A DNA stretch of 64,000 nt from positions 54,208 to 118,207 of the forward strand of contig JBHYDA010000013.1 in NCBI GenBank assembly GCA_051861265.1, read 5' to 3'. Both the position numbers and the translations under genes were made by a program. This document shows, in pieces, positions 4,602 to 29,191 of this stretch (within the stretch, counting starts at the first letter, position 1; every line of letters begins with the position of its first letter). Source of the DNA: Rubrivivax sp. (lineage in GTDB: Bacteria > Pseudomonadota > Gammaproteobacteria > Burkholderiales > Burkholderiaceae_C). The notes beneath the pieces are model-generated. The model made no database searches. It saw only the letters and a list, made by a program, of their open reading frames with translations, and had not been told where the DNA came from.

Positions 4602-5606
4602 TCAGGCGCTCGTGCCCGCCAGCAAGGCGCCGTAGCGCGCGATGTCGACGTTGCCGCCGCTGAGGATGACGCCCACGCGCTGTCCCCGTGCCGGCACCAC
4701 GCCATGCATCAGCGCGGCCGCGCCCAGCACGCCGGTGGGCTCCAGCACCAGCTTCAGCCGTTCGGCGAAGAATCGCATCGTCTCGACGATTTGCGCATCA
4801 CTTACCGTTTCGATGCGGCTCACCAGGCGCTGAATGACTGGGAAGGTCAGCGTGCCGCTGTGCTGCGTCTGCGCGCCGTCGGCGATGGTCTTGGGGGTGT
4901 CGATGTGCACGATGCGGCCCAGGGCCAGGCTCTGCTGGGTGTCGTTGCCAGCCTCGGGCTCGATGCCGACGACCTCGATGCCGGGGCTCAGGTGGTGCGC
5001 GGCCACCGCGCAGCCGCTGATCAGGCCGCCGCCACCCACGCAGACAAGCAGCAGATCCAGCGGCCCCGTGTCCTGCAGCAGCTCCCAGGCGGCGGTGCCC
5101 TGCCCGGCCATCACGTGCGGGTGGTCGTAGGGCGGAATCAGCGTCATGCCGCGCTCCTGCGCCAGGCGGCGGCCGATGGCCTCGCGGTCTTCGGTATAGC
5201 GGTCGTAGAGCACCACCTCGCTGCCGCGCTGGCCTTGCTGGTAGCCGCGTGTGGCCGTCAGCTTGGCCGCGGGCGAGTCTTGCGGCATCACGATGACCGA
5301 GGGCATGCCCAAGAGCCGCGCCGACAGCGCGATGGCCTGTGCGTGGTTGCCCGAGCTGAAGGCGATGACGCCGGCCTCGCGCTGCTGCGGCGTGAACTGC
5401 GCCAGCGCGTTGTAGGCCCCGCGGAACTTGAAGGCGCCCATGCGCTGCAGGTTCTCGGCCTTGAAGAAGACCTGCGCGCCGGTGGCTTCGTCCACGGTGC
5501 GCGAGGTGATGACGGGCGTGCGGTGGGCCACGCCCTGCAGCCGCGCGGCGGCGGCTTCGACGTCGGCGGCGCTGATGGCCAGCGGAGCAGCCATGTGGGT
5601 GTTCAT
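4602..5606 (-). CDS. PLP-dependent serine/threonine dehydratase, threo-3-hydroxy-L-aspartate ammonia-lyase-like
   Basis: KAENLQRMGAFKFRGA (PLP Lys), FSSGNHAQA, VGGGGLISG, SGGNVD. Confidence 0.85.
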   Translation of the reverse strand: MNTHMAAPLAISAADVEAAAARLQGVAHRTPVITSRTVDEATGAQVFFKAENLQRMGAFKFRGAYNALAQFTPQQREAGVIAFSSGNHAQAIALSARLLGMPSVIVMPQDSPAAKLTATRGYQQGQRGSEVVLYDRYTEDREAIGRRLAQERGMTLIPPYDHPHVMAGQGTAAWELLQDTGPLDLLLVCVGGGGLISGCAVAAHHLSPGIEVVGIEPEAGNDTQQSLALGRIVHIDTPKTIADGAQTQHSGTLTFPVIQRLVSRIETVSDAQIVETMRFFAERLKLVLEPTGVLGAAALMHGVVPARGQRVGVILSGGNVDIARYGALLAGTSA

Positions 5607-24600: not shown

Positions 24601-25572
24601 ATGCAGATCCAACGCGGCTGGCGCCGCCCCGGCACCGCCGGCTGCGCCATCACCATCGGCAATTTCGACGGCGTGCACCGCGGCCACCAGGCCATGCTGG
24701 CACTGCTGATCAGCGAAGCCCGTCACCGTGGCCTGCCCAGCTGCGTGATGACCTTCGAGCCGCACCCGCGCGACCACTTCGCACGCCAGGCGGGCAAGCC
24801 CGAGGCCGCCCCGGCGCGCATCGGCACGCTGCGCGACAAGCTCTGCGAGCTGCAGCGCTGCGGCGTGGACGAGGTGGTGGTGCTGCCCTTCAACCAGGCC
24901 TTCGCGGCGATGCAGCCGCAGGCCTTCATCGACGAGGTGCTGCGCGACGGCCTGCGCGCGAAGTACGTGCTGGTCGGCGACGACTTCAACTTCGGCGCCC
25001 GCCGCGCCGGCAGTTACGCGATGCTGGATGCGGCCGGGCCCGCTGTGGGCTTCGACGTGGCGCGCATGAACAGCTACGAGGTGCACGGCCTGCGCGTTTC
25101 CAGCTCGGCCGTGCGCGAGGCGCTGGCGCGCGGCGACATGCGCCAGGCCGAGGCCCTGCTGGGCCGGCCCTATGCCATCAGCGGCCACGTGCTGCACGGC
25201 CGCAAGCTCGGCCGCGAGCTGGGCTTCCGCACGCTGAACCTGCGTTTTGCGCACGCCCGGCCGGCCGCCAGCGGCATCTTCGTCGTGCGCGTGCACGGCC
25301 TGGACAGCGGCCCGCTGCCCGGCGTGGCCAGCCTGGGCGTGCGCCCCACGGTGGAAGACGCCGGCCGGGTGCTGCTGGAGGTGCATTGCCTGCACTGGCC
25401 AGCGGCGCTGGGTGAGAACGGCGGCTATGGCCGCTTGCTGCGCGTGGAGTTGCTGCACAAGCTGCACGACGAGCTGAAGTACGACGGGCTTCAAGCGCTG
25501 CAGGAAGGCATTGCGCGCGACACCGAGGCCGCGCGCAGCTGGTTGCGCGCTGCGGGCGATGCCCGCGTCTAA
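24601..25572 (+). CDS. ribF: Bifunctional riboflavin kinase / FAD synthetase
   Basis: IGNFDGVHRGHQ, FEPHP, VGDDFNFG, SSSAVR, GRELGFRTLN, GVRPTV. Confidence 0.95.
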   Translation: MQIQRGWRRPGTAGCAITIGNFDGVHRGHQAMLALLISEARHRGLPSCVMTFEPHPRDHFARQAGKPEAAPARIGTLRDKLCELQRCGVDEVVVLPFNQAFAAMQPQAFIDEVLRDGLRAKYVLVGDDFNFGARRAGSYAMLDAAGPAVGFDVARMNSYEVHGLRVSSSAVREALARGDMRQAEALLGRPYAISGHVLHGRKLGRELGFRTLNLRFAHARPAASGIFVVRVHGLDSGPLPGVASLGVRPTVEDAGRVLLEVHCLHWPAALGENGGYGRLLRVELLHKLHDELKYDGLQALQEGIARDTEAARSWLRAAGDARV

Positions 25573-25583
25573 AATCGGCCGCC

Positions 25584-25703
25584 ATGCGCTCCACGCCAGC
25601 CTCCACGCCCGACTCCGGCCTTCTGCGCTGGCAAGCTGCCATACGCCGGCAAGCCACGCGCAGCCGATCAGCTCGCGACCGAATTATTCGTTCGGCTCTC
25701 TGA
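25584..25703 (+). CDS. Putative ileS leader peptide (39 aa, MRSTPASTPDSGLLRWQAAIRRQATRSRSARDRIIRSAL)
   Basis: ATG lies 8 nt after a TAAAAT -10 box and has no SD; Ile codons ATA and ATT-ATT; below the ORF-track size cut-off. Confidence 0.45.
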   Translation: MRSTPASTPDSGLLRWQAAIRRQATRSRSARDRIIRSAL

Positions 25704-25820
25704 CGCCCGGCCCTGCGCGCTGAAGCGCGCCCGCGTTCCCAGCGCGGCCGGCCTCTCCGAACGACCCCGTGCCGCCCTTACCGCCCCCAACCGGGGTGGC
25801 ACCTGCCGAGCCCACACGCC

Positions 25821-28670
25821 ATGAGCAACACCCCTGACACCCGCAGCACGCTGAACCTGCCCGACACGCCCTTCCCGATGCGCGGCGACCTGCCCAAGCG
25901 CGAGCCGGCGTGGGTGCAGGCCTGGAACGACACCACGCAAGACGGCGGCCTCTACCAGCGCCTGCGCGTGGCCCGCCACGGCGCGCCGCTCTTCGTGCTG
26001 CACGACGGCCCGCCCTACGCCAACGGCAAGCTGCACATCGGCCACGCGCTGAACAAGGTGCTCAAGGACATGATCGTCAAGAGCAAGCAGCTGGCCGGCT
26101 TTGACGCGCGTTACGTGCCGGGCTGGGACTGCCACGGCCTGCCCATCGAGAACCAGATCGAGAAGACCCACGGCCGCGGCCTGCCGCGCGACAAGGTGCA
26201 GGCGCTCAGCCGCGCCTACGCCGCCGAGCAGATCGAGCAGCAGAAGGCCGATTTCCAGCGCCTGGGCGTGCTGGGCGACTGGGCCCACCCCTACCGCACC
26301 ATGGACCCGGCCAACGAGGCCGGCGAGATGCGCGTGCTCAAGCGCCTGATGGAGCGCGGCTACGTCTACCGCGGCAGCAAGCCGGTGTACTGGTGCTTCG
26401 ATTGCGGCAGTTCGCTGGCCGAGTTCGAGATCGAGTACGCCGACAAGAAGAGCCCCACCGTCGACGTCGCCTTCCTGAGTGCCGAGCCCGACAAGCTGGC
26501 CGCGGCTTTCGGCCTGCCCGCGCAGCAGAAAGACGCCTACGCCGTCATCTGGACGACCACGCCCTGGACGCTGCCCGCCAACCAGGCGCTGAACCTCAAC
26601 CCGGCCCTGGTCTACGCGCTGGTGGACACACCGCGTGGCCTGCTCGTGCTGGCCGAAGCGCTGGTGGAGAAGTGCCTGGCGCGCTACGGCCTCACGGGCA
26701 CGGTAGTGGCCACGGCCTTGGGTGAGAAGCTCGGCGGCCTGAACTTCCGCCACCCGCTGGCACACGTGCACCCGGGCTACGACCGGCTCTCGCCCGTGTA
26801 CCTGGCCGACTACGCCACGGCCGACGACGGCACCGGCCTCGTGCACAGCTCGCCGGCCTACGGCCTGGACGACTTCCAGTCCTGCCTGGCGCACGGCATG
26901 AAGGCCGACGACATCCTGAACCCGGTGCAGGGCTCGGGCGTGTACGAGGCCGAGCTGCCGCTGTTCGGCGGGCAGCACATCTGGAAGGCCAACCCGGTGA
27001 TCGTGCAGGCGCTGCAAGACGCCGGCCGCCTGCTGGCCCAGGCCGAGATGCTGCACAGCTACCCGCACTGCTGGCGCCACAAGACGCCGGTGATCTACCG
27101 CGCCGCGGCGCAGTGGTTCGTGCGCATGGACGAAGGCGTTGGCGTCTGCACCGTCGACAAGGCCCCGGGCACGCTGCGCCAGACGGCGCTGGCCGCCATC
27201 GATGCGACGAACTTCTACCCCGAGAACGGCCGCGCCCGCCTGCGCGACATGATCGCCAACCGCCCCGACTGGTGCATCAGCCGCCAGCGCAGCTGGGGTG
27301 TGCCCCTGCCCTTCTTCCTGCACAAGGTGACGGGCGAGCTGCACCCCGACACCCTGGCGCTGATGGACCGCGCTGCGGCCTTGGTGGAAAAGGGCGGCAT
27401 CGAGGCCTGGAGCCAGCTCGACCCGGCCGCGTGGCTGGGCGCCGAAGCAGAAAGCTACGCCAAGAGCCACGACATCCTCGACGTCTGGTTCGACAGCGGC
27501 AGCACCTTCAGCCATGTGCTGCGCGGCTCGCACCCGGGCGGCGCGCACGCGCAGGGCCCCGAGGCCGACCTCTACCTGGAAGGCCACGACCAGCACCGCG
27601 GCTGGTTCCACAGCTCGCTGCTGATCGGCTGCGCGCTGGAGGGCCGCGCGCCCTACCGCGGCCTGCTCACGCACGGCTTCGCCACCGACGGCGCGGGCCG
27701 CAAGATGAGCAAGTCGCTCGGTAACGTGGTCGAGCCGCAGACGCTGACGAACAAGCTCGGTGCCGAGATCGTGCGCCTGTGGTGCGCCGCCACCGACTAC
27801 AGCGGCGACCTCAACATCGACGACAACATCCTGGCCCGCGTGGTGGACGCCTACCGGCGCATCCGCAACACGCTGCGCTTCCTGATGGCCAACACCAGCG
27901 ATTTCAACGCGGTGCAGCACGCGCTGCCGGTGGAGGAACTGCTGGAGGTCGACCGCTACGCGCTGGCGCGCACCGCGCAGCTGCAGGCCGAGATCCTGGC
28001 GCACTTCGAGGCCTACGAGTTCCACCCCGTGGTGGCCAAGCTGCAGGTCTTCTGCAGCGAAGACCTGGGCGCCTTCTACCTCGATACGCTGAAGGACCGC
28101 CTCTACACCACGGCCCCGGGCAGCCACGCCCGCCGCAGCGCGCAGACGGCGCTGTGGCACATCACGCACAGCATGCTGCGCTGGATGGCGCCCTTCCTCA
28201 GCTTCACCGCCGAAGAGGCCTGGAAGCTCTTCGACGGCGGCCACGCCGAGACGGACAGCATCTTCACGCAGACCTACTGGCAGCTGCCGGCACCCGATGC
28301 CGCGCTGCTGGCCAAGTGGGGCCGTATCCGCGAGCTGCGCGACGTGGTCAACAAGGAGATCGAGGCCCTGCGCAGCGCCGGCGGCGTGGGTTCGTCGCTG
28401 CAGGCCGAGGTGCAGATCACGGCCCAGGCCGCCGACCATGCACTGCTGGCCAGCCTGGGCGAAGACCTGAAGTTCGTCTTCATCACCTCGGCCGCGCGCC
28501 TGGTGGCGGGCGAGGCGCTGGCGGTGCAGGTAGCCGCCAGCACGCACACCAAGTGCGAGCGCTGCTGGCACTGGCGCGAAGACGTCGGCCACGACACTGC
28601 CCACCCCACGCTGTGCGGCCGCTGCACCAGCAACCTCTACGGCGCGGGCGAAACCCGCACCGTGGCTTGA
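25821..28670 (+). CDS. ileS: Isoleucyl-tRNA synthetase (type 1)
   Basis: [27 protein letters not shown]-terminal CERCWH...CGRC zinc site. Confidence 0.98.
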
Positions 28671-28672
28671 GC

Positions 28673-29191
28673 GTGGCGGCGCGAGGCGCTTCGGGCAGCC
28701 CCAGCCTCTGGCTGTGGCTGGGCCTGGCGGCCATCGTCATCCTGGCCGACCAGGTGACCAAGACGCTCATCGTCGGCTGGTTCCAGCTCGGCGACGTTCG
28801 CCCGGTCACCGGCTACTTCAACATCGTGCGGGCCCACAACCCGGGCGCGGCCTTCAGCTTCCTGGCCGACGCCTCGGGCTGGCAGCGCTGGTTCTTCACC
28901 GGGCTGGGCCTCGTCGTCTCGTGTTTCATCGTCTGGATGATCCGCAACCACCCGACGCAGAAACTCTTCTGCTTCGCGGTCAGCATGATCATGGGCGGCG
29001 CCCTGGGCAACGTGGTCGACCGGCTGATCCACGGCTACGTGGTCGACTTCCTGCAGTTCCGTTTCAGCGTGCTCGAGCCGCTGTTCCGCGGCGGCTACTT
29101 CCCCAGCTTCAACATCGCCGACAGCGCCATCACGCTGGGCGCGGTGTGCCTGATCCTGGACGAGATCCTGCGCGTCAAGCGCGGGCGCTGA
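28673..29191 (+). CDS. lspA: Lipoprotein signal peptidase II
   Basis: [30 protein letters not shown]; canonical position after ileS. Confidence 0.95.

Follow-up and report, generated by a model that had tools for sequence, protein, structure and literature searches.

A conserved leader open reading frame upstream of ileS in Rubrivivax and related bacteria, with an invariant CGA-ATT codon pair as candidate sensor of isoleucyl-tRNA

The stretch of DNA analysed here, which we call the window, comprises 64,000 nt of Rubrivivax sp. (GCA_051861265.1, contig JBHYDA010000013.1, positions 54,208-118,207 of the forward strand), and includes the genes ribF, for the bifunctional riboflavin kinase/FAD synthetase, and ileS, for isoleucyl-tRNA synthetase (IleRS), with a short open reading frame (ORF) between them that we propose to be a leader of ileS (Table 1). 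Direct reading confirmed the layout given in a preliminary description, made from the sequence alone: the ribF stop and the ileS ATG (25821) are 248 nt apart, a TAAAAT box overlaps the ribF stop, and the ORF of 39 codons starts 8 nt further on. Its three Ile codons, ATA (codon 20) and a tandem ATT-ATT (codons 34-35, 25683-88), are all different from the ATC that dominates the surrounding genes, as had also been stated; in the 28 coding-like ORFs of the window, Ile is encoded by ATC in 94.2% of cases, by ATT in 5.2% and by ATA in 0.6%.

Table 1. Features of the ribF-ileS region, in window coordinates.
Feature	Position	Strand	Basis or remark
ribF (bifunctional riboflavin kinase/FAD synthetase)	24601..25572	+	Pfam FAD_syn and Flavokinase; TAA stop at 25570-72
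ileS (isoleucyl-tRNA synthetase)	25821..28670	+	Pfam tRNA-synt_1, Anticodon_1 and zf-FPG_IleRS; N-terminus typical of IleRS
TAAAAT, -10-like box	25570..25575	+	Overlaps the ribF stop; 8 nt 5' of the leader ORF ATG
Leader ORF, 39 codons and TGA (25701-03), peptide MRSTPASTPDSGLLRWQAAIRRQATRSRSARDRIIRSAL	25584..25703	+	ORF list, family alignment
Peptide core RW[HQ]AAT[RH]RQxTRDR-I, codons 15-34	25626..25685	+	Codon table, 54 loci
In-frame insert of 15 nt, S-R-S-A-R	25662..25676	+	Relative to L001, L002 and L004; placement ambiguous by one codon
CGA-ATT(-ATT), rare Arg codon followed by rare Ile codon	25680..25688	+	Proposed P-site/A-site pause point
Long-range helix, 5' arm TCGTTCGG	25688..25695	+	In the minimum free energy fold; codons right after the Ile codons
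Long-range helix, 3' arm CCGAACGA	25757..25764	+	In the minimum free energy fold
Hairpin GCGCGC-TGAA-GCGCGC	25715..25730	+	Within the domain closed by the long-range helix
Hairpin GTGCCGCCCT...GGGGTGGCAC	25769..25802	+	Minimum free energy fold; no U-tract after it
C-rich, G-poor untranslated leader, 117 nt	25704..25820	+	59 C, 34 G; candidate Rho utilisation region

For comparison we used about 90 related loci (labelled L001-L091), 80 of which were fetched via RibF similarity with one genome per species; the labels P0031 and P0036 denote matches of a peptide profile search. In a fused long class of 26 loci (Acidovorax, Ramlibacter, Polaromonas, Curvibacter and Caenimonas), RibF itself ends in [RH]RQTTRDRI directly before its stop codon, 83-155 nt 5' of ileS, so that the RibF ending RRQTTRDRI, which the preliminary description had attributed to Comamonadaceae, is real. 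A fused short class of 23 loci (Limnohabitans and Rhodoferax) has RibF proteins ending in ...W[LF]xA-R-I before the stop, which differ from the long form by a deletion of eight residues. In comparison with the 80 relatives, the RibF of the window terminates in ...AAGDARV-TAA, without the RRQTTRDRI tail, and the motif is instead found in the small ORF. This layout defines the Rubrivivax-like free-ORF class, with 22 RibF-fetched loci that contain ileS, plus L046, and 31 loci over the whole comparison, the ORF being 27-43 codons long. The comparison supports the view that the detached ORF and the motif in the RibF tail represent one and the same element. Three further loci (L039, L065 and L077) form a no-leader class, where ribF abuts ileS and the motif is absent, and the remaining ones, L016, L021, L030, L071 and L076 (ileS not located) and L006 (small ORF without an ATG), were not assigned to any class.

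The genomic context indicates that the small ORF belongs to ileS, and not to ribF. It lies 81-222 nt 5' of ileS in 22/22 free-type genome loci that contain this gene, and it stays with ileS even though a gene of ~1 kb separates them from ribF in L003, L007, L010, L012, L015, L017 and L019; the ORF of L046 is detached from ribF as well, in a fetched stretch where ileS was not found. A profile built from 21 free-ORF peptides and searched against 5.8 billion proteins gave 36 matches (best E = 6.5e-11), all of 27-66 amino acids, unnamed or 'hypothetical' and without a Pfam domain, the single NCBI-derived one being from Ideonella livida, the one NCBI genome in which the free small ORF is annotated. 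Eight matches were checked in their contigs, and all are found directly 5' of ileS or of a large gene at the ileS position, at 80-150 nt from the downstream gene by called-gene coordinates, and with ribF, a MerR regulator, a Peptidase_C14 gene or a divergent gene as upstream neighbour. The weakest match tested (P0031, E = 0.1) was rejected as a false positive due to its unrelated context. A metagenome scan with the peptide alignment gave 393 matching stretches, of which a single locus was retained on confirmation. No family was matched by the leader ORF peptide in Pfam or NCBIfam.

In the three no-leader loci, ribF and ileS overlap or lie 6 nt apart (L039, 3974-3978; L065 and L077, 4002-4008); here the leader element has been lost, with direct translational coupling in its place. 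In E. coli K-12 (L091, 22289-22429) the ribF-ileS gap is 42 nt and the motif is absent. There, ribF ends in ...TAREFFGLTKPA, without the Arg-Ile sensor, and an out-of-frame CGAATT (GCC CGC GAA TTT) is probably present by chance.

The pattern of codon substitutions shows that the motif ORF is selected as a coding sequence. In the codon table of the 54 loci with an uninterrupted motif, with positions counted back from the Ile codon, the residues T, R, R, Q, T, R and D are conserved with synonymous drift at the third positions: Thr at position -9 (53/54 loci) is encoded by ACC (22), ACG (28) or ACA (3), Arg at -7 by CGG (24), CGC (26), CGT (3) or AGG (1), Gln at -6 by CAA (12) or CAG (42), Thr at -4 by ACG (39), ACC (11) or ACA (1), and Asp at -2 by GAC (49) or GAT (5), and any of T, A, G, S and C is found at position -5, which is free. 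Insertions and deletions always come in multiples of 3 (+15 nt in the window, others in L009, L011, L023 and P0036), and the alignment over the related loci thus returned the frame-preserving conservation of RRQxTRDRI by which the preliminary description had proposed to check its claim, with no frameshifting indels. In the 26 fused long loci the motif is the RibF C-terminus, and is therefore translated by definition. The free ORF is evidently translated too, and this part of the earlier interpretation is supported.

The start of the free ORF presents a distinctive signature, with TA[AGC]AAT located 6-8 nt 5' of the ATG in 31/31 free-ORF loci, whatever the upstream gene; the spacing is 7 nt in most of them (23), 6 nt in 4 loci, and 8 nt in the remaining four, the window and its three closest relatives. 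No Shine-Dalgarno sequence was found 5' of the ORF in these 31 loci, and a scan for the sigma-70 consensus at the window locus was negative. TAAAAT is probably the -10 element of an ileS-leader promoter that would yield a leaderless, or nearly leaderless, mRNA. Taken together, we consider it highly probable that this is a conserved, translated and ileS-linked leader ORF, with an invariant Ile codon.

One could argue that the product itself matters, as a trans-acting small basic peptide or as a functional tail of RibF (for example, an arginine-rich RNA-binding motif), or that the ORF is just a neutral remnant of a duplicated ribF 3' end. The peptide is indeed Arg-rich, like arginine-rich motifs (TRRQ.TRDR), and its RW·AA segment is similar to the RibF end ARAW[FL]A: the segment RW[HQ]AA of the leader ORF (25626-25640) resembles the C-terminal helix ...AR.W[FL].A of RibF (ribF 25519-25545), which suggests that the free ORF originated from duplication or splitting of the ribF 3' end, or else the fused form from a fusion. 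Moreover, the NCBIfam RibF equivalog model NF004159 aligns through the last residue of the tail in L062 (residues 330-349), which means that annotation pipelines count RRQTTRDRI as part of the enzyme. However, the Flavokinase domain of this protein stops at residue 329 out of 349, which places the tail beyond the enzyme fold. The element is also always immediately 5' of ileS, regardless of the upstream gene, a protein function would not predict the invariance of rare codons, and there is no hairpin target common to the clades; the boxB/arginine-rich-motif idea was rejected on this last ground. As for a neutral remnant, it would not keep the ORF, the -10 box and a drift that is exclusively synonymous in 31 separate loci. 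This set of explanations therefore seems very improbable.

Every one of the 54 motif loci has CGA-ATT as the last two codons of the motif, and the pair recurs in 23/23 short-form RibF ends, despite the variation of the adjacent codons, and in 8/8 loci retrieved through peptide similarity alone, the sole variant seen being L011, with CGA ATG ATT. The CGA is thus as invariant as the ATT that follows it, which the preliminary description had not noted. One Ile codon is invariant across the family, and the window and some relatives carry another next to it. CGA accounts for only 2.9% of the Arg codons in the 28 coding-like ORFs of the window, and the fixation of CGA-ATT in spite of usages of 2.9% and 5.2% points to selection on the identity of the codons and not of the residues. 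The sequence CGNGAYCGAATT occurs once in the window, versus 0 expected, and once per related locus, always at the ileS leader, with one further match elsewhere in L088. CGA is read via inosine-adenosine wobble and AUU via G-U wobble of tRNA-Ile(GAU), both of which are decoded slowly, and the use of rare regulatory codons is an established way of sharpening the response of a leader-peptide sensor, as is the case of CUA in the leu leader. Since the downstream gene charges tRNA-Ile, an Ile codon as the fixed point provides a feedback logic, and the codon pair would most likely act in the sensing of Ile-tRNA through a pause at CGA-AUU.

The same hexamer might instead function at the RNA level, with GA/AUU as an RNase E site or as a structural or protein-binding motif, the ribosome being protective or translation incidental. 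CGAAUU matches the RNase E preference RN/WUU, GA/AUU is the only A/U-rich spot in a GC-rich leader, CGAATT is invariant in its nucleotides while the adjacent codons drift, and a CCG...CGG pairing could put AAUU in a loop in several clades. Still, in 77/77 loci the hexamer is an in-frame Arg-Ile that closes a peptide conserved at the amino acid level, the flanking pairings are not kept across clades and there is no Rfam match, so we regard this possibility as improbable.

In comparison with its closest relatives L001, L002 and L004 (RRQATRDRII), the window copy has a 15-nt insert between TR and DRI, in agreement with the in-frame insert of the preliminary description, and at position -9 the consensus Thr is replaced by Ile (ATA); this departure from the consensus had not been recognised before. 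The insert, which is identical to CGC-GAC-CGA-ATT-ATT at 8/15 positions, possibly originated as a tandem copy of it that has since diverged, and similar in-frame expansions are present in L009, L023 and P0036. These insertions, together with the eight-residue deletion of the short form, indicate a flexible distance between W·AA and R-I, which suggests that the codon pair, and not a precisely spaced arrest peptide, is the indispensable core. The window retains an intact ATG, -10 box, CGA-ATT-ATT, stop, long-range helix and C-rich leader, and its copy is probably functional, possibly with an altered strength.

The region between the ORF and ileS is at least ~75 nt long across the loci and has a pronounced compositional bias. 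C exceeds G in 72/72 leaders (means of 0.40-0.47 for C and 0.25-0.30 for G), over a region extending from approximately +10 past the stop to approximately +60 of ileS, and the window leader (59 C, 34 G) ranks among the 0.6% most skewed of all 117-nt segments in the 64 kb. A scan for intrinsic terminators (25000-26200) found none, and the hairpins have no U runs behind them. The C-rich, G-poor tract, the hairpin at 25781-99 and the lack of a U-tract terminator were all correctly described initially. An Rfam scan (25000-26400, E ≤ 10) gave chance matches alone, with no T-box and no known leader, and the stability of the whole-leader fold is unremarkable (z = -1.55).

The long-range helix is kept in the window, L001, L002, L004, L007 and L012, and in L003 with one G-U pair, although the sequence that it encloses is completely different in L003, L007 and L012; as there is no covariation, this speaks for conservation but is no proof of pairing. 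Its 5' arm is within the footprint reach of a ribosome paused at AUU. Two mutually exclusive pairings of the Ile-codon region had been proposed in the preliminary description, and both can be read in the sequence, namely this helix and a short complementarity between CCGAA (25679-83) and TTCGG (25691-95), but only the helix is conserved, in the clade of the window only and without covariation. A ribosome-gated helix straight after the Ile codon was also considered, and rejected due to the weak excess of pairing over shuffled sequences. The loop of the 25715-25730 hairpin is TGAT or TGAC in L001, L002 and L004, and the 25769-25802 hairpin, which includes the one at 25781-99 (CCGCCCC/GGGGTGG) as an alternative, has a G-U pair in the window that is G-C in L004. 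Other clades have other helices: GGGC/GCCC directly after the stop in the short form, and, in the Ramlibacter-type leaders, a helix junction that has 6 compensatory pairs and is closed by a stem reaching to within a few nt of the ileS ATG. A search for a k-mer or helix common to all leaders retrieved only C-rich words. The combination of clade-specific helices with a C-rich, terminator-less spacer fits the loose sequence needs of Rho better than a fixed hairpin switch, and relief of Rho-dependent termination would be the most likely output, as the best fit and, at the same time, the least certain step. The composition of the leaders is compatible with an action of Rho, which it does not prove by itself.

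Another possible output is translational attenuation of the ermC type, in which a helix concealing the ileS ribosome-binding site (RBS) would be melted by the ribosome paused at AUU. This would agree with the poor Shine-Dalgarno sequence of the window ileS (GAG, 12 nt from the ATG), with a helix (25688-95/25757-64) that begins inside the footprint of the paused ribosome, with the position of the closing stem in the Ramlibacter-type junction, and with the direct coupling of ribF and ileS in L039, L065 and L077. However, a partition-function simulation of 71 loci, in which the footprint of a ribosome at the Ile codon was blocked, predicts on thermodynamic grounds a median change in RBS openness of ~0 in all three classes, with an increase above 0.05 in 16/71 loci and a decrease above 0.05 in 8/71. 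In addition, even in the free state the RBS is open to 50-60%, and the structures vary between clades, some of them being like inserted palindromic repeats. We thus find this mechanism unlikely. Of the overall interpretation in the preliminary description, the conserved, translated and ileS-linked element with an Ile codon at its core is retained, whereas RBS accessibility, one of the two outputs it put forward, found no support.

Several other features of these leaders were inspected. The leader ORF of the window is in frame with ileS, with no stop between the TGA (25701-03) and the ATG, but a design based on stop-codon read-through into ileS was ruled out, as the frames split 7/7/8 over 22 loci and differ in L001, L002 and L004, pointing to a coincidence. 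Mimicry of the tRNA-Ile anticodon loop by CUGAxG motifs was rejected on inspection, as the third position is A, C or U and the loops have 4 nt. The context of the ORF stop, C-TGA-[AC]-G, recurs 9-22 nt downstream (25699-25726 in the window; TAAG in L012), and the repeat is also seen in L003, L007, L010, L012, L013, L015, L019 and L020, just past the ORF stop; it might catch frameshifted ribosomes, or might merely reflect local duplications. As a consequence of the repeat, 14/22 free-ORF loci have a -1-frame stop no more than 33 nt away from the Ile codon (at 24-33 nt in 13 loci, and at 6 nt in L022), versus a shuffle median of 114 nt. Locus L003 has ~8 tandem CCTGAAGCAGCG-like units (5020-5200), the fused-type leaders of L036, L045, L059, L069 and L078 have a long inverted repeat, CTTCGACAGGCTCAGGGC...GGGCTGAGCCTGTCGAAG, and the Ramlibacter-type leaders contain two near-identical hairpins (ATTGCGG...CCGCAAT); these repeats and hairpins of the fused-type leaders look like inserted repetitive extragenic palindromes. 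At the locus itself, a 978-aa ORF antisense to ileS (25668-28604, minus strand) is the usual artefact of high-GC sequences, and ileS is followed by a signal peptidase II (LspA)-like gene (28670-29191, plus strand), giving the common order ribF-ileS-lspA.

From these data we propose, with a probability of roughly 0.55, that the ORF encodes a translated, cis-acting leader peptide of ileS, in which a pause at AUU raises ileS expression when Ile-tRNA is scarce, likely through relief of Rho-dependent termination. Transcription would start at the ATG of the ORF, or at most 1-2 nt from it, driven by TAAAAT and giving a leaderless message. The ribosome would hold the nascent ...RW·AATRRQ·TRDR in its exit tunnel, and would arrive at the pause point with the rare codons CGA and AUU occupying the P site and the A site, respectively, its dwell time there being set by the supply of charged tRNA-Ile. 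The paused ribosome would then alter the fate of the 117-nt C-rich leader, yielding more ileS under Ile-tRNA scarcity, and might relieve Rho-dependent termination either by keeping the helix 25688-95/25757-64 from closing or by serving as a roadblock. The pause, its dependence on Ile-tRNA, the direction of regulation and the involvement of Rho are all steps that we infer.

Some observations weigh against this proposal. A ribosome paused at 25683 leaves the C-rich tract uncovered, so a route by which it would block Rho is not obvious, and pairing of the 15 nt that follow the Ile codon exceeds that of shuffles only weakly (mean z of 0.6-1.0). The window has two clustered Ile codons and many relatives have one, whereas classical attenuators use runs. 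The flexible spacing between W·AA and R-I speaks against a rigid arrest peptide, and the leaderless ribF-ileS arrangement of L039, L065 and L077 implies that the element is dispensable in some lineages. The window copy, being off consensus (five-residue insert and Thr to Ile), could be weakened. Finally, no -35 element was found upstream of the TAAAAT box, so the -10 assignment relies on conservation.

The conserved peptide also brings to mind a ligand-dependent arrest peptide similar to TnaC or SpeFL, which would bind free Ile or another small molecule and stall the ribosome at or near the stop, independently of tRNA charging. Around 15 conserved residues precede the stall point, with an aromatic residue 12 positions ahead of the P-site Arg, the stop directly follows Ile in the 49 fused loci, L023 and L089, and the C-rich leader is like those of tnaC and speFL (PMC8429421, 10.1101/604074, PMC12360218). 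On the other hand, the invariance of CGA and ATT at the nucleotide level points to tRNA and decoding, and not to the identity of the residues, the distance from the Ile codon to the stop varies from 0 to 7 codons, that from W·AA to R-I is not fixed, and there is no clear physiological logic for free Ile raising IleRS. We therefore view this explanation as unlikely. Within the proposal of a pause governed by Ile-tRNA, it is conceivable, as a more tentative idea, that the element represents a new class of regulatory nascent peptide, in which AATRRQxTRDR, bound in the tunnel, and the peptidyl-tRNA-Arg on the wobble-read CGA would make the decoding of a single AUU rate-limiting. This would be a single-codon sensor of Ile-tRNA, and a portable module that can be carried in a leaderless ORF or in the last codons of RibF.

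To our knowledge, the control of ileS in Proteobacteria is poorly understood, and we know of no specific control in E. coli. No description of an ileS leader peptide was found in the literature, and none is listed in the table of Rho-dependent attenuators of a 2025 review, so the element has apparently not been described so far. If the proposal is correct, it would provide an amino-acid-specific feedback on IleRS in a widespread group of freshwater and soil bacteria (Acidovorax, Ramlibacter, Polaromonas, Limnohabitans, Rhodoferax, Rubrivivax and Ideonella), and, with IleRS as the target of mupirocin, the element would predict the response of these organisms to IleRS inhibition. The same ten codons occurring as the C-terminal tail of an enzyme and as a free leaderless ORF constitute a natural experiment, and the invariant rare pair suggests that the identity of the P-site and A-site codons can tune a starvation sensor, beyond runs of codons. 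For genome annotation, the 'tail' of many annotated RibF proteins probably has a regulatory role instead of belonging to the enzyme, and a gene of 27-43 codons is absent from nearly all annotations.

In classical leaders there are runs of 4-7 regulatory codons, no conserved peptide, and a 1:2/2:3/3:4 hairpin switch with a U-tract terminator. The ileS leader shares with pheM-pheST of E. coli, and with the trp, his, leu and ilv leaders (PMC12360218 lists hisL), a short ORF 5' of a gene related to the same amino acid, and its cognate codons would sense charged tRNA as theirs do; in pheST the regulated gene is an aminoacyl-tRNA synthetase, as here. In contrast to these attenuators, it has only one or two Ile codons and no cluster of cognate codons, it has a conserved peptide of ~15 residues and an invariant preceding CGA, and it lacks both a U-tract terminator and a hairpin switch common to the family. 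The T-box leaders of ileS in Firmicutes and Actinobacteria, whose signal is the charging of tRNA-Ile (PMC1262725), share the gene and the signal, but bind the tRNA directly and without translation. A T-box at the window ileS was discarded, as the Rfam scan gave no such match, and the sequence GGGUGGCACC (25794-25803), which matches the core of the T-box consensus (GGGUGGNACC) and lies in a local hairpin, was also rejected, since it is changed to GGGCGGCACC in L004 and absent from other clades.

The proposed leaderless layout is also that of the poly-Cys ORFs of mycobacteria, cysteine-responsive attenuators and first cistrons in which translation of the cognate codons sets downstream expression (10.1101/834739), and which likewise have a -10 box a few nt before the ATG; they differ in their runs of Cys codons, the lack of a conserved peptide, their actinobacterial hosts and their targets, which are biosynthetic genes rather than a synthetase. 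In Bordetella pertussis, CruR is a betaproteobacterial leader peptide that acts via ribosome stalling and Rho (PMC12360218), but it responds to copper, has an intragenic Rho utilisation (rut) site, and its peptide and regulated gene are unrelated to those described here. TnaC (tnaCAB) and SpeFL (speF) likewise combine a conserved nascent peptide with a C-rich spacer and the absence of an intrinsic terminator, and they stall the ribosome at or near the end of a small ORF, where the proposed pause of the ileS leader would also lie. They sense free tryptophan and ornithine, respectively, stalling at the stop codon and masking the adjacent rut site (PMC8429421, 10.1101/604074, PMC12360218), there is no sequence similarity with the ileS leader, and the position of the stall relative to the C-rich tract is different. 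The fixed feature of the ileS leader is instead a sense-codon pair, CGA-AUU, and the regulated gene charges the very tRNA that reads it; what specialists would not expect is that a single pair of rare codons is fixed in this way, and that one module serves either as the tail of an enzyme or as a leaderless upstream ORF.

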